IMG/VR virus record: IMGVR_UViG_3300025679_000007
Coordinates: 7,285 to 71,284 of that record
Reading direction: 5' to 3' (one strand)
DNA: 64,000 nt
Source: a virus
A model generated the notes under the pieces. It made no database searches. It worked only from the letters and a program-made list of their open reading frames with translations, and was not told the origin of the DNA. Shown here piece after piece: positions 7,082-37,891 of this stretch. Position 1 is the first letter of the stretch; every line of letters begins with the position of its first letter. A program made the translations under genes and the position numbers.

Positions 7082-7462
7082 ATGGACGACACCTCAGAGC
7101 GCCTGCGCCTGCAATGGCTGTACGAGAGCATAGCCGATCCCGATTGCACGGGGTGGACGTGTCCGACATGCGACTATTCGAACTATCACACCTATGGCCT
7201 GAAGGAATGCGAGCGGTGCGCGTTCGAACTTGATCAGGATCGTGTCCGGGACGCGCTGGCCGAACGTGAAACAGACAAAGCGGCTAACAAAGTAAAATCC
7301 AGGAAATATGAGTGCTTCATTGAAGATCACGTCCCGTTGCCGTGGACGCCAGGACGCTGCGCCGGATACGCGGGCCACACGCTCCATTTGATGCGCTGCA
7401 AACGGAAAGACGGTTTTGGATTGGGTGGGTTGTTCTGTAAGCAACATGCGAAGAATTCGTGA
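7082..7462 (+). CDS. Zn-ribbon-containing hypothetical protein
   Basis: WTCPTC..CERC and C-terminal RC..FCKQH. Confidence 0.55.
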   Translation: MDDTSERLRLQWLYESIADPDCTGWTCPTCDYSNYHTYGLKECERCAFELDQDRVRDALAERETDKAANKVKSRKYECFIEDHVPLPWTPGRCAGYAGHTLHLMRCKRKDGFGLGGLFCKQHAKNS

Positions 7463-9793: not shown

Positions 9794-10168
9794 ATGGCAC
9801 ATCTGACCTTGGATGATATCCGGACGGCGGCGGCAGCCATAGCCAACGCGCGCGGTGGGCGGCGCGGTGTGCCGGCGGTTACGAACATCCTGGACCTGCT
9901 GCCCGATAAACTCAGCGAGGAAGTGCTCGACGATGCGATGGCAGTCGCGCGCGCGCTCGACGATTCAGACTGGCAGCCGATCGAGACGGCGCCGGGCGAT
10001 GAGACGATCCTGATCTACGTGCCGCCTTTCGCCCCCATGCAGGGGACCAGATCGGGGCGATTCGGAACCTGGATGATCGGCGCCCGGTCGATTTTTGGGC
10101 GTGACCTGGCGCCTGGGATGGAGCCGACGCACTGGATGCCGCTGCCCGAGCCGCCCCATGCCCCCTGA
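9794..10168 (+). CDS. DUF551-like phage protein
   Basis: WQPIETAP...PTHWMPLPEPP; GGAGG SD. Confidence 0.8.
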   Translation: MAHLTLDDIRTAAAAIANARGGRRGVPAVTNILDLLPDKLSEEVLDDAMAVARALDDSDWQPIETAPGDETILIYVPPFAPMQGTRSGRFGTWMIGARSIFGRDLAPGMEPTHWMPLPEPPHAP

Positions 10169-10259
10169 AATCACCCTCCGCCCCGGTTGGCTGGCGCGCG
10201 ACATCGAACGCGCGCGGGCGCGGCTGGCGGAATGGGACGCGAGGTGGCGCCGAAACAAC

Positions 10260-10325
10260 AGTCCCGTGGCGCGACAGGTAGCGCGCCGGAATTTGACTCC
10301 GGAGGTTGCGGGTTCGAGATCGCGA
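10260..10325 (+). pseudogene. Degenerate tRNA-Gln(TTG)-like remnant
   Basis: D stem GCGC/GCGC, anticodon arm CCGGA-ATTTGAC-TCCGG, GGTTCGA T-loop; T stem imperfect and 3' acceptor strand absent. Confidence 0.55.
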
Positions 10326-10337
10326 AGGAGAAAAACT

Positions 10338-10596
10338 GTGAACCTTAAAGCCGTTCAAGATCGTTTACCAGAATACTGGACCGATCAAAGCTATCCCGAT
10401 AGTTTTAATCAGGAACCATTACCACATCGGCATTTTAATCACGCACTAACCCATTGCATGAAGGCTCTTGGCGGTCTCGCGGCGCTCTCGGACGCTCTTG
10501 ACCATGCGCGGATGATGAACCGAGGCTATTCCGACCCGGAAGCTGAACGACTTCATGTCAATGCAGGGAAGTATCTCGCTGACCTTGTGATCTGCG
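10338..10596 (+). pseudogene. MazG-like gene, 5' part, interrupted by IS
   Basis: AAGGAG SD + GTG; reads ..KYLADLVIC up to the target duplication. Confidence 0.7.
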
Positions 10597-10620
10597 CCCA
10601 ATTATGCACTTTACAAAGCA
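10589..10620. repeat. Target-site duplication (10589-10596) and left inverted repeat (10597-10620) of the IS
   Basis: GATCTGCG followed by CCCAATTATGCACTTTACAAAGCA. Confidence 0.9.
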
Positions 10621-10670
10621 GAGTAACTTCCTATAAATTCCTTGCCAAGCAGATTGTAAGGAGGCTGATC

Positions 10671-10877
10671 GTGAATAATTGCGTCAAGCAGGATGGTATA
10701 TCCGCATGCATTTGCGACGATCTGCCGGAAGATATGATCGACAGGGCGGCGTCGGCATTACAGGAACCATTGGAGGCACCCCGTTATTGGGCGCGTGGGT
10801 TGGCGCGAGTGGCCTTGTGCGCCGCGCTATCCCCTTGTTGGGATGCGTGTAAGGAATGCATCAAGGCGCATCCTTAA
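10671..10877 (+). CDS. Small Cys-rich IS passenger ORF
   Basis: AAGGAGG SD + GTG; TTTACA-N16-TATAAA promoter-like sequence starting in the IR. Confidence 0.45.
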   Translation: MNNCVKQDGISACICDDLPEDMIDRAASALQEPLEAPRYWARGLARVALCAALSPCWDACKECIKAHP

Positions 10878-30079: not shown

Positions 30080-33000
30080 TCAATGGACGGAAATTGTCTC
30101 GCCTGTTTTCCGCGCGCGCTGCATCGCCGCCGCGTCCCGCGGAATGCCGGGGTATTTCATCATGACCATCCCCTCGGCGGCGGTGCGGGCCTGGCGGATC
30201 GTTTCCTGAATGGCCTCATGGCGGGTCGTGTTTGGCCACGCCTGATAATTCGGTGAGCGCACGATTTTATCGAGTTGCATCTTGGCGGTGCGCCCCGCGA
30301 TCCGCGCGTAATCGTCGTATTGTTCGTCGGTCAACGGCACATTGCGGATTCGGCGCTCGACCGGCGCGGGGCCAAGGCCGAGCGCCAGCAGCGCCTGATT
30401 GACCGGATCGGAACTGACCTGACGTTCGTAAATCGCCGTCACGCCAGGCCCCAGCAGCGCCGCCCCGTTCGGCATCGGGTCGCCCCAGATGTCACGCCGC
30501 GGGAACAGGCTTTCGGACATACCGGGAACCTTGGACCGGATCGCGTCCATGATGGTGCGGGCCTGCCGCGACCACGGATCGGTAGCGCGGGCCATTTGCG
30601 CCATACCGACGGAATAGGGCAGGAAAGACGAAAGGAAATTACGGACATAGCCGGCGCCATACCGCCCAGAGTCAGTGACCGCCTTGATCAGGTCAGATGG
30701 GCCGCGCATGAAACTTTCATCGAGGATGTTCTGCGAAAAAGCGTGCATCAGAGACTTTCCCACCACGTCGGCATCTTCGGTGCCGATCTGATGGACGACA
30801 TCGTACATGTCGGCCGCGACGCTCATCAGCATTCCCATTGGGCCGAGCCGGTGCACATCGTACCAGAGGTCACCGATACGGACGCTATGCGCCTGATTTC
30901 CCGCCAATCGCCACATCGCGGCCTTGTTTGGATCGGCTGGTCCTGATCCGCTGACAAGCCCTTGCGAGGCGAGGCCGCCGAACGTGACCGCGAGTGAAGT
31001 CCCGACCAACATTTTCGCCATGGCCGTGTCCTGCGCGATATTGCCGTTACGACCCGAGAGGTCAGCGCGGATTTCACGTCCAAAAAGCCCGATCGGCGTC
31101 CGCTGCCACAAGGACTGGTTCATGATGTTGCCGGCGATATGCACGAACGGATCAACGAATTTCAGGAGCGCCGTCTCGCCGAGCACGGGCAGGTTATAGG
31201 TCTTGTTGAAGAACGCACTCAGGTTCTGGGTCAGCCGTCCGCCCTGGCCCATCAAGGTCAGGTCGGTTGCCTTACCCCTGGCCTGCTCCATCATTTCCTC
31301 GGACGGGTTCTGTCTCAGGTCGGCAATCCGCGCGGTGCGCGCCATCCCTGACAGGCCCTCCTCCATCGCCTGCCGGTAGGCGAGCGCGTTGACTTCCATC
31401 GAATAGTTCATGGCGCGGAACGTGCTGTGGATGGCGGCGACGGCTCGGCTCGGTAGCCGCGCCAGGGTGCCAAGCGGTACGACTTTGACCCCTTTATAAG
31501 CAAAATCAGGGATCTGCCCGAGTGGCGAATAGACCGGCCCTATCATCGGCGCCCTCGGCACGCCGCCGGCCTTGACGAGTTCGCCGGTCGCGACAAGGCC
31601 ATCGCGCATTCCCTGGACCAACCCGTAAGCATCCCCAGCCGCTTCGCGCCATGTGACCGGGGCGTTTGTCATTCCCCGCGCCATGGTCAGAGATGTGTCG
31701 CCCTGGAACGGCATCAGGGGCCGCGCCTCTTCCCCTGGTAGCATCGTCGTGGCGCCGGAGCGCAACGCCTCAACACCAGCCTGGACCGCCGCCGGCGCTT
31801 CCGTGGCCGCGGCCCGCAACTGCGCGCCAACCTCGCCGAACCGGACCCTGGAGCCTTGTCGTCCCATCCGGGCCCGCAGCGCACCGATCGCCGCCGCCGC
31901 CGCCGTTTCCGGGCCGGCTTTTTCGATTGCCAGAATGCCGTTGCCAATCACGTAAGTCGCGTGCGTCGACGGACCGGAAATCAGCCCATTGATCCAGTAT
32001 TCGAGCACCATGCCACCGTAGGACCGCCGTTGTGAGTCGCGCAGCAGCTTCGCCACCTTGCCCGGCGTATCCATTCGTGCGCCTAGCTTCGCCACCATCG
32101 CGAGTTGGTACAAGTCCTTCCCCGCGTTGTCCTTCATGAACTGGTTGAGGTCCTTGGCGTGCTGCCAGTCCTTCATGTTTCGGAACGACATACCGAGGTT
32201 GCGGCCCTGTTTCGCCGTCACGCCGGATAGCGTCGTCATCATCATGTCGAACCGCGCCATTTCCACGGTCGAGGCCGCGATATCGGTCGGCGCCTGGGTC
32301 TCGGCGGCCTTCGCCCATAGTTCATGAACGAGCCTGCCTTGCTGTCCGATGATGTCGCGCAACGCCCAGATTTTGGGGCCAAGGTCTTCAACGCCGCCAA
32401 ACAGGCGGCCGAGTTGGGCCTCGGTGATGGTCGCCGGGTCGAGGTCCATGGCCTGCGCCAGGTCGATCATCGCGCCCATCGTGGCCTTGCCGCGAACCGC
32501 TTCGTATTTGCCGTTCCGCTCCGCTGAGTCCATCGCCGCCTGAATGAAGCCGGCGCTATCGTCGATGTTCCTTACACGGACGTTTCCGGCGAGGTCGACG
32601 GCTTCGGTTGATCCGGTGTCGGCGAAGGATTCGGCTGGGGTTGGGGCGAACTGTTCAATCCCAGGATTTGCGCCAGTGCCTGGTCGTCGGTCTGCAACAG
32701 GGGGTTCGGCGGCCGCGCCGCCTCCCACGCCATGGCTTTCTGACTCAGCCTTACCGCCGCCTGGCTCGACCGCGCCGCGATCTGTGCTACCGCCGCCGCT
32801 TCGGGGGAGAGGTTCGGATTGGCCGCTACCCGAGTCCAGTGTTCGACCTGCCGTTGGTCCTCGGCCAGTTTCTGTTCCAGCGTCTGATATTGCTGTTCCG
32901 GGTTGGTCGGCGGGTTCGGCCTGGGGGGCGAGTCCATGTGTGACCTCTGGTGGCTGTCCGGCTACATAACGGTCCCGCTCGCTGACAACCCGGTTCCGAA

Positions 33001-36000
33001 CCGCCTCCGCCTCGTGCGGCCGGGCTTCCGCCGCGTCCGCTTCGTGGATGTCGGCGATGCTGCCTTGTGGCTCCGGCACCTCTCCATGGGTGATCCGTCG
33101 CGGTTCGATCGCCAGCATCCGGTTGAACACGCCCCGGATATCGTCATTGATCGGCGCTCCAAGTCCACGGAGCGTTCGGTATATCGTGGTCAGCCAACCC
33201 TTGAACTTCGCGAAAACACTATCCAAAGCCCGGCTCGGGGCGTGGCCTTCCCGCAAATACTGCTCGAAGCCCCGCGCGAAACGTTCCTGGGGCAGTACAT
33301 CCGGCTTACCATCGCGCTTAAATCCTGTCCAGTCTTCCGATCGTTGCAGCCAGCGCCGGACCGTCGTGGCATCCGCCCGGAGGTCCGGCGGTGCCAGTTC
33401 ATGGCGGGAATCGCTCATCAGTTGCTTCAGCCAGTCGTGGCTGGTCTCGTGCATGAACGTGCTGGCATCGGCCGTTCGGGACAGGGTGATGATGGAGCGG
33501 ACGTCGCCAGGCGCCATGCGAATGCGACCTTGAATCGCGGCGCGGGCGCGTTGGTAGAGAGTATCGGGCGTCGCGGGGTGGTTGGCGCCAATGGGTTCGG
33601 ACTGTTTTGTTAGAACCTCGCGGAACGCTTCATAAGCGTTCTTCGTCTCCCAATGCCCGGTGGGATCGCCTTCTTTGTTAAATATCGTCACGCGCCAACC
33701 GTCAGGCGGATAATTCAAATCGTGGCTGACCAGAAATTTTAAGCCGCCGCGCCCCTGAAATGCCGCCGGCTTGCCGGCGTCAGCGTAGCGTTGGGCCAGG
33801 GCACGAACCTGCCGTCCGCGTTGCAGTAATTCTTCCCATGTTGGAGTTACGTGTTGGAACAGTTCGCCACCCGGCTCATCTTTCGGTGCGAACAGCCCTG
33901 CATCCGCAGGTCGTTGCTCTCCTTCCCCGCGTAACGCCCCGCGGCCAGCCTGATCACGCGCCGCCTGTGCCTGAACGGCGGACGGTTCGGTTCCGGGAAT
34001 TGTGATTTGGCGTTCGTCAGTCCGGATCGTCGGTTCGGCCGCGCGGGACGCCAGTGGTTCGGTGATCAGTTGGCCAAGAAGATCGCGTGCCTGAGTGTCG
34101 TGAGCGTCAGGCGGCGCTAGTTCAGGCTCTCTTGCTGCGCCAAGGACAGAGCCGCGATCGTTTGGCCTTTCACCCAGGCCTTCTGAAAGTCGCTTTCGGA
34201 TAATCCCAAGGAATTCTCTGGCACCACCGGCGGCGCCGATTTCTCCGTCGCGAACACGTCTCGCGATGCCGGTGAGGGCATCGCTGACTGGTCCTTTGCG
34301 GGTCGCGAGTTGCGTGAGGAGTTGACGGGCTTGCTCATCGGTCGTCAGTCTATTCCGATTTGCTTCTGTATCAAGCACATTTTCTCCGTGCCCTTGGATG
34401 CGATCAGCTTCACTGACCAAGGTGTGAAACGTCGTTCGATCGCGGCCCAGTTGACGCATCGCTTCACTGGCCACCTTGGCGCGTTCCAAAGTCGCGCTGG
34501 CGGCGTAATGTTCCTCTCCGAATAAAGTACCTTGAGTACTGGCCTCAGTCGCGGTCTCCATGACATCGCGGACAATGAATTCGGCCTCCTGTAGGCTACC
34601 TGGCTTCGCCTTGGCGAGCACTCGCATCGCTTCGACCTGCCGCGCCGGGTCAGTTACGATCCGGCCCACGATCGCGGCCTGCCCGGTGGGAACGACATCG
34701 TTGACGGCCATCCCGAAAGCGTCAGCCGAAAGTCGCGCCAGGGCGCGGCCATCACGCGCCAAAGTGGAACGAGGCGGCAGTGGCGGAACCTCAAGATCGG
34801 CGACTTCGGCCTCTTTCACAACCTTGGCGGCATCAATGGCCGTTCCGGTTCCTTCCGTGATGTTTTTCGCCGCCGCGATGACCCGCGCCTGCGCATCCGT
34901 CATGCCGTCACGCGCATCCAAAACGAAAGCATTCAGGCGGATTCCGGACTGCCCGGCGGCGACAAGGCGCTTTGCCAACCCAAGCCGCTGGTGGCCGTCC
35001 GCGATCCAGTTCCGACCTTCGGCATCCCGGAAAACCAACACAGTCCCGGCAAAGCGTGGATCCCATGTCTCAACGCCTTCCAGCCGGTCCGTGACACCTG
35101 CTTCATCACCACCCCCCTTGAACTGGAACCGGGCCGCGTCAACACCAATTTCGGCGGGGTCAAGCGATTCCAGGCCTCCGTTACCGCTGGCATGGGTCTG
35201 GATGTTCGGCTGCTCTGGCGTTGGTAGCAGTGGCGCTACACGATCAAATTCGGCACCGGCTGGAGGTCCTTGCTCGCCCCCTGCTGCTGGTTCGGCGGCG
35301 ACTGCGGGGCGCTCTCCGGTTGGCTCGACGGCTGCGGCTGGGGCAACGACTGGCTCACCGGCAACTGCTGTGCCGCCTGTCCCTGCGCCTTCTGGTTCGC
35401 CGCGTCCTCCAGTCCCAACGACAGGTCCAGGTGGTTCGCCGCCTTCTGGTACTGGTCCCGCACCGGGCGCGGCAGGTTCTGGTTCCCTGCCGCCGCCAAG
35501 GCGTTGCTCCGTTGCAGCAATTTCGCTCGGCGGTCGATGCTCACGTTCCAGTTCCTCCAATGGCCGCGACTGATCGGAATCGTAGAAGCGATCCGGGTCT
35601 TCGGTGACTTCCGGCGCAGCCTCCGCCGCCGCGCGTTCCGCTTCCCGGTATTCGATCTGCCCGGCCTCGGCCTCGGCGTTGATCTCGTCGACCACCCGTT
35701 CCGATGGGAGGCGATCGACTACGGCGGCGATCACGGCGGCCGGTGGCGCTTCAGTCTTGGGGAGGCCGATCGTCGCGGCCAGCCGGTCCAATTCCGGGTT
35801 GCGCGCCGGCTCAACGGATGCCGCGCCTGCGCGTTGCCGCGTCTGCCAGTCCGACAGGGCGAGCAATTCCTGATTTTGTACCGCGATGATCGCCTTCGGA
35901 TCGCGGATGCCGTCTTCGAGGGCGATGTCGGCGCCGGTGCGGATGCGCGGGCGCACCGATGGATCGATCGCCTCGGTCTGAGCGGGACGCTCCAACACCG

Positions 36001-37891
36001 CCGTTCCGCCGTCGGTCGGCGTGGCGCGCGCCAAAACCTCCTGGTCCTGTATCTGCTTCGCCTTGGTCGCGCTGACCTTCTCTTGCGCCTGAATGTCGGC
36101 AATGGCCCGGATCGGTTGGGGCGCCGCGCCCCGCGTGACGGGTGGGGTGGATTCTGGCGGAACCTGCCCGTCCGGCCCGATCACCCGCGCAGCTCTCGCT
36201 CGGTACAGATCTTCCGCCGAACCCAACGCGCCATTAAACCGCCGCGCCAAAGTCTCGTAATACGCGGCTTCGACGTGTGCGCTTTGCTCCGCCACATCGC
36301 GCGGCGACCCAGCCGCCATGAGTTGCGCGGTGCGATCCGCCGTGATGAAGGCGCGCTGCGCCTCAATAGATTTTTGCGGGGCGGCTTCCGGCCCTGGCTC
36401 GGGAGGCGGAACCTCGGCGGCAACGGTCGGCGACTCTTCCGCTGGTGTCTGTTCCGGTTCTTCGACGTGATCCGCCGCCCGGCGCCGTGCCGCCGAAATG
36501 TCCGGTCCCAGGTCCCAAAGCGCGTGCTCGGTGTCCATGAGATGCTGACGGGCCAGAAGAATGTCCGGCGTATCAACGTGCGTGCCGGATTCCCATGCCG
36601 AGCGACGGGCGCCAAGGTCTTGCTCCTGAGTCGCGATATCGGCTAGCTCGGCCCGAAACCCGCGCGCGGCCGGGCCACGCGGATTGGCGTTGCGTAGCGC
36701 TTCTTCCGCCGCGTACCGCTTCGCCGCCAGGTCATCGAACGCTTCGTCCGGCGGGTTGCTTTGGGTGTCGATCCAGGACCGGAGCGCATCCCGTTGTGTC
36801 AGCAATTCGTCGTTGCGCTGGAACACTTCCGGGCTCAACCGCCGCGCGATCGCGTCGACATCCGGGGTGGACAGGGGACCGAGCGCCGTCTGTTCGTCCG
36901 CCGCGGCATTGTTCGCCGCGATTTTCGTCGTGAGGCTTTGCTCTTCATCCCCACGGAACGTGGACTCGGTAATGCCCGGCCCAAGCACGCCAAGATCGCC
37001 AGCCTGCGCCACCGTCGGTTCGGTTGGACTGAGCACGCCTTCCGGCGGGACGGCGGTCGGATGAAACGCTCCGGCGCCAAGATTGGTCAGGTATTCGCCA
37101 AACCGGGTCGGCTTGTTGAACACCATCCCAAACCCGGTCGAAATCCCGATCTTGGCCCAGTCCGGTGTCTGGCCGCTCCATTCCTCCTGGCCGAGTTCCA
37201 TGCCGCCCATCGCCGCCCCACCGAACAGCCGCCCGGTGAGCGGGTTCGCCATGAGGCGCTGGAACGCCGTGGCATCGGCCGGTAGGTTCAGTGCCTTGGT
37301 GGCGAGCGAACCTGGCATCATCGTGACGGCGTACGGAGCCATTCCCCCGATGAAGGATGACAGAGGATGCTGGCTCTCTTGCAGCCGCTGGATGCGATCG
37401 GACTGGCCAAGCGCGTCCTGCCAGTTGTCCGGCATTTGGTGCAACACGAAATCCTGCGCGCCTTCGACGGCGGATGAGCCGGCAAAGAAGCCGCCTAGAC
37501 CACCGACAAGTCCGCCAACCGCCGCGCCAACCGGCGCGACTACAGGGGCCGCCGGGCCGGCAAGAGCGCCAAGCCCCGCGCCGAACAACGCACCGGCCTC
37601 CGCACCCGCGCCGGCCGCCGCAAGCCCTCCGGCGGCGGGCAACGCACCGTGAATCGCGTGCGAAATAAAGGCGCCAATGCCGGAGGTCTGGACCGGCGCC
37701 ACGGGCTGTAAATTCAGGTCGGCGAATGGGTCCGGTCCGACAGGCTGATCCGGACTCGCTGATGGATCAATATCAGCGAAAGGGTCCGGACCAACTGGTT
37801 GAGTCAGGTGGCCCGGCGCCTCAATGGGAACCATTTTCCCGGCACCGGCGTCAAACCGAAATCCAGGATGGGTATCGGTGGTATCTCCCAT
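30080..37891 (-). CDS. Giant ejection/internal virion protein (polyvalent; ParB-like and HExxH domains)
   Basis: T7 gp16 position; RFQFK..WD..IADGHQR ParB-like domain; STFMHETSH..ERFARGFEQYL. Confidence 0.85.
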   Translation of the reverse strand: MGDTTDTHPGFRFDAGAGKMVPIEAPGHLTQPVGPDPFADIDPSASPDQPVGPDPFADLNLQPVAPVQTSGIGAFISHAIHGALPAAGGLAAAGAGAEAGALFGAGLGALAGPAAPVVAPVGAAVGGLVGGLGGFFAGSSAVEGAQDFVLHQMPDNWQDALGQSDRIQRLQESQHPLSSFIGGMAPYAVTMMPGSLATKALNLPADATAFQRLMANPLTGRLFGGAAMGGMELGQEEWSGQTPDWAKIGISTGFGMVFNKPTRFGEYLTNLGAGAFHPTAVPPEGVLSPTEPTVAQAGDLGVLGPGITESTFRGDEEQSLTTKIAANNAAADEQTALGPLSTPDVDAIARRLSPEVFQRNDELLTQRDALRSWIDTQSNPPDEAFDDLAAKRYAAEEALRNANPRGPAARGFRAELADIATQEQDLGARRSAWESGTHVDTPDILLARQHLMDTEHALWDLGPDISAARRRAADHVEEPEQTPAEESPTVAAEVPPPEPGPEAAPQKSIEAQRAFITADRTAQLMAAGSPRDVAEQSAHVEAAYYETLARRFNGALGSAEDLYRARAARVIGPDGQVPPESTPPVTRGAAPQPIRAIADIQAQEKVSATKAKQIQDQEVLARATPTDGGTAVLERPAQTEAIDPSVRPRIRTGADIALEDGIRDPKAIIAVQNQELLALSDWQTRQRAGAASVEPARNPELDRLAATIGLPKTEAPPAAVIAAVVDRLPSERVVDEINAEAEAGQIEYREAERAAAEAAPEVTEDPDRFYDSDQSRPLEELEREHRPPSEIAATEQRLGGGREPEPAAPGAGPVPEGGEPPGPVVGTGGRGEPEGAGTGGTAVAGEPVVAPAAAVEPTGERPAVAAEPAAGGEQGPPAGAEFDRVAPLLPTPEQPNIQTHASGNGGLESLDPAEIGVDAARFQFKGGGDEAGVTDRLEGVETWDPRFAGTVLVFRDAEGRNWIADGHQRLGLAKRLVAAGQSGIRLNAFVLDARDGMTDAQARVIAAAKNITEGTGTAIDAAKVVKEAEVADLEVPPLPPRSTLARDGRALARLSADAFGMAVNDVVPTGQAAIVGRIVTDPARQVEAMRVLAKAKPGSLQEAEFIVRDVMETATEASTQGTLFGEEHYAASATLERAKVASEAMRQLGRDRTTFHTLVSEADRIQGHGENVLDTEANRNRLTTDEQARQLLTQLATRKGPVSDALTGIARRVRDGEIGAAGGAREFLGIIRKRLSEGLGERPNDRGSVLGAAREPELAPPDAHDTQARDLLGQLITEPLASRAAEPTIRTDERQITIPGTEPSAVQAQAARDQAGRGALRGEGEQRPADAGLFAPKDEPGGELFQHVTPTWEELLQRGRQVRALAQRYADAGKPAAFQGRGGLKFLVSHDLNYPPDGWRVTIFNKEGDPTGHWETKNAYEAFREVLTKQSEPIGANHPATPDTLYQRARAAIQGRIRMAPGDVRSIITLSRTADASTFMHETSHDWLKQLMSDSRHELAPPDLRADATTVRRWLQRSEDWTGFKRDGKPDVLPQERFARGFEQYLREGHAPSRALDSVFAKFKGWLTTIYRTLRGLGAPINDDIRGVFNRMLAIEPRRITHGEVPEPQGSIADIHEADAAEARPHEAEAVRNRVVSERDRYVAGQPPEVTHGLAPQAEPADQPGTAISDAGTETGRGPTAGRTLDSGSGQSEPLPRSGGGSTDRGAVEPGGGKAESESHGVGGGAAAEPPVADRRPGTGANPGIEQFAPTPAESFADTGSTEAVDLAGNVRVRNIDDSAGFIQAAMDSAERNGKYEAVRGKATMGAMIDLAQAMDLDPATITEAQLGRLFGGVEDLGPKIWALRDIIGQQGRLVHELWAKAAETQAPTDIAASTVEMARFDMMMTTLSGVTAKQGRNLGMSFRNMKDWQHAKDLNQFMKDNAGKDLYQLAMVAKLGARMDTPGKVAKLLRDSQRRSYGGMVLEYWINGLISGPSTHATYVIGNGILAIEKAGPETAAAAAIGALRARMGRQGSRVRFGEVGAQLRAAATEAPAAVQAGVEALRSGATTMLPGEEARPLMPFQGDTSLTMARGMTNAPVTWREAAGDAYGLVQGMRDGLVATGELVKAGGVPRAPMIGPVYSPLGQIPDFAYKGVKVVPLGTLARLPSRAVAAIHSTFRAMNYSMEVNALAYRQAMEEGLSGMARTARIADLRQNPSEEMMEQARGKATDLTLMGQGGRLTQNLSAFFNKTYNLPVLGETALLKFVDPFVHIAGNIMNQSLWQRTPIGLFGREIRADLSGRNGNIAQDTAMAKMLVGTSLAVTFGGLASQGLVSGSGPADPNKAAMWRLAGNQAHSVRIGDLWYDVHRLGPMGMLMSVAADMYDVVHQIGTEDADVVGKSLMHAFSQNILDESFMRGPSDLIKAVTDSGRYGAGYVRNFLSSFLPYSVGMAQMARATDPWSRQARTIMDAIRSKVPGMSESLFPRRDIWGDPMPNGAALLGPGVTAIYERQVSSDPVNQALLALGLGPAPVERRIRNVPLTDEQYDDYARIAGRTAKMQLDKIVRSPNYQAWPNTTRHEAIQETIRQARTAAEGMVMMKYPGIPRDAAAMQRARKTGETISVH
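32572..32937 (-). CDS. Candidate nested gene (+1 frame) in giant ejection gene
   Basis: CCAGAGGTCACAC-ATG; helical protein-like sequence. Confidence 0.5.
   Translation of the reverse strand: MDSPPRPNPPTNPEQQYQTLEQKLAEDQRQVEHWTRVAANPNLSPEAAAVAQIAARSSQAAVRLSQKAMAWEAARPPNPLLQTDDQALAQILGLNSSPQPQPNPSPTPDQPKPSTSPETSV
35236..35544 (-). CDS. Candidate nested gene (+1 frame) in giant ejection gene
   Basis: TTGGAGGAACTGGAAC-GTG; GC3 bias favours the nested frame. Confidence 0.5.
   Translation of the reverse strand: MSIDRRAKLLQRSNALAAAGNQNLPRPVRDQYQKAANHLDLSLGLEDAANQKAQGQAAQQLPVSQSLPQPQPSSQPESAPQSPPNQQQGASKDLQPVPNLIV

Follow-up and report, generated by a model that had tools for sequence, protein, structure and literature searches.

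Up to three probable small genes in the +1 frame of a giant gp16-like ejection-protein gene

Can the linkers of a giant phage protein be, read one base over, genes in their own right, and if so, which of the two frames came first? The question is raised by IMG/VR virus record IMGVR_UViG_3300025679_000007, in which a 2603-amino-acid (aa) open reading frame (ORF) for a protein resembling the T7 internal virion protein gp16 encloses three short ORFs on the same strand, here named N1, N2 and N3. The DNA analyzed, referred to as the window, is a 64,000-nucleotide (nt) stretch (positions 7,285 to 71,284) that covers most of the 71,284-bp record, whose completeness rating is 100%. An earlier note, made from the letters of this DNA, had proposed N1 and N2 as overprinted genes and N3 as a weaker third candidate. 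Our analyses support a reading in which the giant ejection-protein gene holds up to three separate small +1-frame genes, each at a low-complexity linker; from sequence comparison we put its probability at roughly 0.8. The nested ORFs would then include at least one real, conserved gene for a small helical protein, and probably three such genes. The features on which the argument turns are the following.

30080..37891, minus strand: host gene, a giant internal-virion (T7 gp16-like) multi-module protein of 2603 aa (ORF and PHROG match)
35236..35544, minus strand: N1, 102-aa ORF with a GTG start, frame +1 of the host gene, host aa 783-885
34117..34338, minus strand: N3, 73-aa ORF with an ATG start, frame +1 of the host gene, host aa 1185-1258
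32572..32937, minus strand: N2, 121-aa ORF with an ATG start, frame +1 of the host gene, host aa 1652-1773
35554..35558, minus strand: GGAGG, Shine-Dalgarno-like motif 9 nt before the N1 GTG at 35542-35544 (sequence)
32943..32947, minus strand: GAGGT, Shine-Dalgarno-like motif 5 nt before the N2 ATG at 32935-32937 (sequence)
32716..32880, minus strand: predicted helical-hairpin core of N2, residues 20-74 (AlphaFold2, 27 sequences)
34120..34230, minus strand: conserved C-terminal domain of N3, residues 37-73, SLGLSxxxFQKAWxxGQTxAALSLAQ (sequence comparison)

The three ORFs lie where the earlier note had placed them, on the strand of the 2603-aa ORF and each offset from it by one base, and the start contexts that it had read, GGAGG-N9-GTG before 35544 and GAGGT-N5-ATG before 32937, are likewise present.

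In an effort to determine which frame is held by selection, homologues of the host gene were collected from scans of IMG/VR and metagenomes. These yielded full-length genes (L001, L002, which is the same contig region as L006, L004, L011, and L012), a partial gene cut by its contig end (L005), and two short fragments. Pairwise protein identity among them is 0.38-0.54, save for L002 and L004 (0.94). A first scan of genome contigs gave zero relatives of the host gene, megablast of the gene against cultured phages gave zero matches, and no close cultured phage was found for it. Six sequences were aligned by codon with the host protein as guide, a choice that favors the host frame, and divergence was followed in 235 sliding windows. 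Third codon positions are the most divergent (median 0.59) except at host aa 1223-1262 and aa 1661-1763, where divergence at the third position is lower than at the first; it falls to 0.25 in these two exceptional places, which are the C-terminal half of N3 and N2. Where the host residue is identical between sequences, the codon is also identical in 313 of 449 cases in N2 (164 of 199 in its core) and 154 of 257 in N3, as against 4749 of 10168 outside the three ORFs. As fractions (0.697 and 0.599 versus 0.467), N2 and N3 are the two highest regions of the gene, and each contiguous window that reaches the N3 value overlaps either N3 or N2. With the same host-guided alignment, Nei-Gojobori ratios of nonsynonymous to synonymous substitution (dN/dS) in six control regions are 0.23-0.55 for the host frame and 1.23-1.54 for the +1 frame; in the N2 core the order is inverted, at 1.36 for the host frame and 0.67 for the +1 frame. 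The constraint on synonymous sites that the earlier note had suggested looking for is therefore seen in N2 and N3; in N1, where few columns align, codon identity is 19 of 60 and not raised.

N2 carries the strongest case. Its ORF is intact, with its ATG, in all six homologous loci; in the homologues the ATG stands 40-48 codons ahead of a conserved LSP motif and is preceded by (G)GAGGT at 5-6 bases in five of the six, L012 having none at that spacing. Residues K23, A38, P41, L43, S44, P45, A47, A51, A55, R56, S57, and A60 of the core are invariant or nearly so. A comparison of all six reading frames over 77 ungapped codons of five non-redundant sequences places the nested frame first on amino acid identity, stops, and dN/dS (0.53, 0 stops, and 0.58), against 0.35, 0 stops, and 1.59 for the host frame. 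The other sense frame has 17 stops, and the antisense frames have 3-9 stops and worse dN/dS. On these grounds two antisense ORFs over N2 (32544-32969 and 32608-32943, plus strand) were rejected as candidates. Taken together, the comparisons of these sequences indicate that N2 is certainly under purifying selection at the protein level.

Suppressed synonymous change could also reflect an RNA or DNA element (a structure, internal promoter, or packaging or regulatory site) that requires no second protein. The rate of synonymous substitution (dS) of the host frame is indeed reduced at N3, to 0.60-0.80 from 1.24-2.15 in the controls, and N3 has no Shine-Dalgarno motif. But the constraint has a three-base periodicity that fits the +1 frame, change being rarest at nested position 2 and commonest at position 3. 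In addition, all loci keep the frame open, and the encoded peptides recur in other proteins in other arrangements, including fusions of N2 with N3. We regard a nucleic-acid element as a very improbable explanation.

A second alternative keeps the +1 peptides and changes how they are made. Phage structural genes often use frameshifts, and programmed ribosomal frameshifting into the +1 segments would give truncated giant proteins with alternative C-termini. The shared strand and the +1 register fit this model, as does the +1 frame upstream, in which five of six loci have 8-50 codons free of stops. Independent initiation is nonetheless favored because in L011 a +1-frame stop directly abuts the N2 ATG; this ATG is moreover kept in six of six loci, and the database members of the family begin at the same Met. 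Frameshifting thus appears improbable, though less so than a nucleic-acid element.

The product of N2 is a predicted 121-aa protein in which a 55-residue helical hairpin is flanked by disordered tails rich in P, Q, and S. An AlphaFold2 model built on 27 sequences has helices at residues 20-39 and 45-74 with a predicted local distance difference test score (pLDDT) of 92-95, and disordered tails. Fold searches returned only generic helical hairpins (Foldseek E at least 0.43, VIA Z at most 7.6), and the ESM Atlas gave no usable match. A profile of four N2 products recovered 27 predicted proteins among 7354 candidates from a set of 5.8 billion proteins; a profile of those 27 sequences matched 263 representative clusters at E ≤ 1e-3, and 157 at E ≤ 1e-10, in a set of 1.84 billion. 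Members are mostly 90-135 aa long and start at the same Met. When two members (P0002 and P0021) were searched by tblastn against 50,697 cultured phage records, no relative appeared, and a viral-contig scan with sub-alignment A3 gave nothing. On the evidence of these searches, the N2 family is large, uncharacterized, and limited to uncultured-phage and metagenome data.

N2 domains also occur within longer proteins. Two N2 repeats are present in P0034, P0035, P0036, and P0078; in the last, of 442 aa, the repeats run on in one frame through a pair of hydrophobic segments into an Mrr_cat nuclease domain (E 1.5e-18), which makes an off-frame artefact unlikely for the N2 domain. P0078 also has weak PADLOC matches to PDC-S02 and to the ZorD nuclease region. 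By a simple hydropathy window, 34 of 183 family proteins have C-terminal hydrophobic segments, although several of the 34 share clusters. In P0063 and P0105 the N2 domain is followed directly by the N3 C-terminal domain and then by membrane segments. The cluster of P0063 has nine members on contigs of up to 18.6 kb; the window's N2 matches P0063 residues 18-86 with 51% identity over 70 aa, and its N3 matches residues 100-139 with 66% identity over 41 aa. The long relatives have their N2/N3 domains first, their membrane segments last, and no signal peptide, an arrangement in which the N2/N3 domains probably face the cytoplasm at the inner membrane. A well-conserved hydrophobic C-terminal domain of ~70 aa is common to P0063, P0062, and P0019, three clusters with an N-terminal N2 domain; Pfam, PHROGs, and PADLOC gave no match to it, and this phage has no equivalent.

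The same fusions bear on N3. The host module that contains N3 is present in the window, L005, L001, L002, and L004 and absent from L011 and L012, and in all five loci with the module the N3 ATG and open frame are kept, L005 running off its contig. In the C-terminal half, identity is 0.49-0.50 in the nested frame versus 0.31-0.38 in the host frame, with dN/dS of 0.67-0.84 versus 0.85-1.03. An N3 profile matches 12 of the 183 N2-family proteins, all from the P0063 and P0105 clusters, and the N2-N3 fusion proteins are, as far as sequence matching can tell, the strongest support for N3. We consider it likely that N3 is a real gene, a 73-aa ORF with a conserved C-terminal domain of ~40 aa.

N1 is represented in fewer sequences. 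Two database proteins resemble it (one at 63% identity across 99% of the query, the other at 82% across 50% of it), and in L014, an 84-kb record, an N1 homologue is nested in frame +1 of a 1191-aa ORF that joins the N1 region directly to the region following N3 in the window. The GGAGG-N9-start arrangement is kept, with ATG in L014 and GTG in the window. Over 50 ungapped codons, window and L014 share 25 identities in the nested frame versus 18 in the host frame; a run of ten residues is invariant despite seven base differences, including an AGC/TCG serine switch. For this one DNA pair of 38-50 codons, dN/dS is 0.54-0.71 nested versus 1.14-1.36 host. AlphaFold2, given four sequences, predicts a helix at residues 3-19, a loop, and a helix at 26-60, with pLDDT of 73-81 for the first 40 residues. 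The phage of L014 has no N2, and its giant protein is split into ORFs of 1191 aa (L014:3988-7560) and 871 aa (L014:7550-10162). That N1 is a real gene for a 102-aa helix-loop-helix protein seems to us somewhat likely, a little less so than for N3.

Across the three, the nested ORF is kept together with its start codon in six of six loci for N2, in five of five with the module for N3 (one of them cut by its contig end), and in the one locus with the linker for N1. The earlier proposal that these frames are genuine genes and not chance ORFs is thus borne out strongly for N2 and moderately for N3 and N1. Its description of the products as helical holds well for N2, by the hairpin modeled at pLDDT 92-95, and less well for N1, by four sequences at pLDDT 73-81. 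The AxN(Q/P)NL motif that it read as shared is literally there, but a profile comparison of N1 with N2 gives a probability of just 8.9% over 12 columns. Paralogy is accordingly not demonstrated, either of N1 with N2 or of N3 with N2 (hhalign probabilities of 8.9% and 0.2%). All three have an xLGL(S/N/E) motif after their helices (ILGLNSS in N2, SLGLSES in N3, SLGLEDA in N1), as does P0063; the resemblance may reflect a docking motif common to them or may have arisen by chance. Pfam, PHROGs, PADLOC, NCBIfam, and PDB sequences hold no match to N1, N2, or N3 at E ≤ 0.001, the best being to pAgo (E 0.0057) and a PDB chain (E 0.44). A predicted complex of N2 with the C-terminal half of N3 scored 0.02 and returned no answer.

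Within the single genome, composition points the same way without settling the matter. GC content at third codon positions (GC3) of the host frame dips, as the earlier note had noticed for N1, to 0.44 in N1, 0.50 in N3, and 0.52 in N2, versus 0.69 for the whole gene. GC content at nested positions 1/2/3 is gene-like (0.71/0.44/0.91, 0.55/0.51/0.75, and 0.68/0.53/0.78 across the three ORFs). Among 1116 60-codon windows of the 22 long ORFs of the window, 49 have a GC3 below 0.55, and 33 of these 49 lie in the host gene around the three ORFs.

A number of observations weigh against nested genes and are best set out together, beginning with those on the host gene itself. A dip without a nested ORF occurs at host aa 1291-1380 (33752-34021; GC3 0.50-0.53, GC1 0.82-0.85), where the +1 frame is only an arginine-rich off-frame sequence with no start; linker composition alone is thus able to lower GC3, and composition cannot decide the matter. 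The linkers are also poor in T at codon position 2 (0.12 versus a usual share of 0.22), and since a +1 stop requires a T at host position 2, such stops cannot arise there. When synonymous codons were shuffled within the host gene, equal or longer open +1 frames arose in 50%, 52%, and 71% of 2000 trials, and six long +1 runs are observed versus 5.5 expected; ORF length, being no more than chance, was rejected as evidence. The start of N3 (34338) has no clear Shine-Dalgarno motif. The motifs and ATGs that do exist double as conserved host codons (E-V and N/H-E/G; the GGAGG of N1 encodes L-E-E/D-L) and may therefore be by-products of the host protein, not independent evidence.

Further points of this kind concern the individual ORFs. 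For N2, many family members are gene calls on contigs of 0.5-3 kb, where a caller that favors high GC3 would pick the N2 frame, and only intact ORFs are called, which biases the size of the family; it consequently shows spread, not expression. The long N2/N3 forms are non-overlapping with other genes only by inference, from Mrr_cat, the conserved membrane domain, and contig sizes, and the DNA of the long N2/N3/membrane forms was not found in genome contigs, viral contigs, phages, or plasmids. For N3, identity over the whole ORF is nearly equal in the two frames (0.48 nested versus 0.51 host), the N-terminal half is better conserved in the host frame (0.61 versus 0.48), so that its serine-rich nested sequence looks like a by-product, and one antisense frame equals the nested frame on dN/dS in the C-terminal half. 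The N3 profile found no called protein among 1077 database candidates, and in a viral-contig scan it matched the L001 contig only. For N1, the linker is an insertion missing in all six close homologues, which leaves the codon-position scan silent; the substitution ratios come from a single pair, and the +2 frame has a dN/dS of 0.68-0.82, similar to that of the nested frame.

The reading that draws on these points is that all three are chance open frames, in linkers poor in hydrophobic residues whose G/E/A/P-rich codons force a GC-ending +1 frame. It accounts for open lengths at the null median (P 0.50, 0.52, and 0.71), for the dip without an ORF, and for motifs in conserved host codons, but it leaves unexplained the suppressed host third positions and inverted dN/dS, the 263-cluster family, the domain in frame with Mrr_cat, and the fold at pLDDT 92-95. 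For N2 it is refuted by the position scan, dN/dS, the six-frame test, and the Mrr_cat fusion. We judge it scarcely credible as an account of all three, and the least probable of the alternatives.

If the nested frames are genes, which frame is the older? In overprinting, genome-like codon usage marks the older of two frames. Synonymous-codon preference was scored with the remainder of each host gene as the reference. For N2, the nested frame scores 0.08-0.46 across six loci, where ordinary host-frame windows average 0.26-0.51; the host frame inside N2 scores -0.17 to -0.01, below all other windows of the gene in four of the six. The same polarity is seen in N1 (0.43 nested versus -0.21 host) and in the C-terminal half of N3 (0.15 versus -0.34). 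Outside these segments, the mean score of +1 frames is 0.00 and the highest is 0.34. Together with a host-frame dN/dS of at least 1, low-complexity linkers of variable length, and the occurrence of the nested domains in other proteins, codon bias suggests that the small genes are the primary, older frames and the host linkers a secondary frame that is read through. The term "overprinted" in the earlier note thus probably has the polarity reversed, since it is the host linkers that look secondary by codon bias, by selection, and by their low complexity.

A mechanism along these lines would have each small protein translated from its own start (ATG for N2 and N3, GTG for N1) on the late structural mRNA, with other ribosomes reading frame 0 through. 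The linker read-through frame would have joined once-separate modules into one polyvalent protein.

What the products do is a more tentative matter. The earlier note had taken them for small chaperones or inhibitors, each dedicated to the enzymatic domain that it adjoins. N3 is indeed found in five of five loci with its host module and none of two without it, and N2 follows a module with an HETSH motif in six of six. Such co-occurrence is, however, forced by physical nesting; N2 and N3 domains are fused to each other, to membrane segments, and once to an Mrr-type nuclease, and none of these proteins carries the neighboring host domains; and N1 persists in L014, whose gene lacks the downstream module. 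We think this function unlikely. Somewhat better, though still doubtful, is the guess that N1, N2, and N3 serve in the cytoplasm as protein-binding modules whose target is the ejection machinery at the inner membrane; they might, for instance, keep the giant protein soluble before packaging. The guess is drawn by analogy from relatives that tether the same domains by C-terminal membrane segments. A broader scenario, as unlikely in our estimation as the dedicated chaperones, is that the giant gene grew by reading through pre-existing small genes, each linker being a by-product of a nested gene that still functions, that N1, N2, and N3 bind ejection machinery, and that cells or prophages copied the modules into proteins tethered to the inner membrane (one with an Mrr-type nuclease) that sense or block incoming ejection proteins.

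In a minus-strand, T7-like structural module, the host gene comes after a portal-like head-tail adaptor, a pair of tail-tube genes, a gp14-like gene, and a gp15-like gene whose 848-aa product bears a lysozyme. Its neighbors include a phrog_308 internal virion protein, the lysozyme-like 848-aa protein, and tail proteins of phrog_376 and phrog_394. Host aa 2147-2576 match the PHROG 'internal virion protein' phrog_6651 (E 4.7e-29); both this family match and the place after gp14- and gp15-like genes agree with a T7 gp16-like identity. The remaining PHROG matches are to PHROGs of unknown function only, and Pfam and NCBIfam have no family in the 2603-aa protein, even when searched module by module. 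Of the labels 'ParB-like' and 'HExxH domain' that the earlier note had given to its modules, neither is confirmed by Pfam, so that both rest on motifs; the HETSH motif itself is readable in the translation. The giant gene is modular, with modules shuffled among relatives, and that bearing N3 is the one missing in L011 and L012.

Several further observations concern this DNA. Opposite the host gene run very long antisense ORFs of 337 aa (34560-35573, plus strand) and 458 aa (35270-36646, plus strand), of a kind common in GC-rich coding DNA. GC3 reaches its lowest values in the window in a 260-aa ORF with a TTG start at 10095-10877 (plus strand), where eleven 60-codon windows give 0.38-0.53; this ORF may be a wrong reading frame or foreign DNA. 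Contigs of two other studies (X2 and X3; soil 2017 and a 2023 metagenome) carry host-gene fragments with 0 differing letters; the two yield nearly identical fragments, so that either the same phage genotype recurs or the data sets are related. A reported joint that skips 3921 bases was taken as spurious, its shorter side being only 21 letters.

Gene callers forbid long same-strand overlaps, so a family of hundreds of clusters would have escaped notice in complete phage genomes, surfacing only where short contigs yield a stray call. If the polarity proposed here is true, long multi-module virion proteins may be assembled by frame-bridging across small genes without losing them, and 'disordered linkers' may be shaped by a second gene and not by a function of their own. 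N1, N2, and N3 also bring forward candidates for proteins that partner the ejection machinery, and perhaps for sensors on the host side.

Several known systems resemble parts of this arrangement. The host protein is like T7 gp16, or internal virion protein D, in that its C-terminal ~450 aa are 21-28% identical to the products of 'internal virion protein D' genes in T7-like phages from the sea and in the order gp14-like gene, gp15-like gene, host gene; it differs in being about twice the usual length, with extra modules. Genes embedded on the same strand are known from the spanins, lambda Rz1 lying inside Rz and T7 18.7 inside 18.5. As in the Rz1 type, each nested gene here would be a small gene wholly inside a larger phage gene, in frame +1 with its own start, and the spanin product is proline-rich too. 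Rz1 proteins are, however, lipoproteins with a signal peptide and a lipobox Cys, whereas N1, N2, and N3 are without any Cys or hydrophobic N-terminus; the host gene here encodes a gp16-like internal virion protein in a structural module, not an i-spanin in a lysis cassette; and up to three nested genes are located in linkers. With the overprinted genes of small viruses such as the Microviridae, the locus shares one DNA stretch that encodes two proteins, one frame that is atypical and disordered, and detection by reduced synonymous variation. It differs from them in that a 71-kb dsDNA phage is not obviously short of space, and in that here the large gene owns the disordered, atypical frame and the nested frame looks older. 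The host gene recalls the polyvalent proteins known from phages and conjugative elements (Iyer et al. 2017, PMC5512222) in encoding a very long multi-module virion protein whose modules are shuffled among relatives; no Pfam domain is confirmed in the host protein. The main text of that paper nowhere uses the words 'overlapping', 'linker', 'low-complexity', 'gp16', or 'internal virion' and thus does not describe linker-nested genes, and literature searches, supplements aside, brought up no account of nesting within the genes for internal-virion or polyvalent proteins. Same-strand embedded phage genes are known, and what appears to be new is their probable presence in the linkers of an ejection protein, together with an undescribed protein family.

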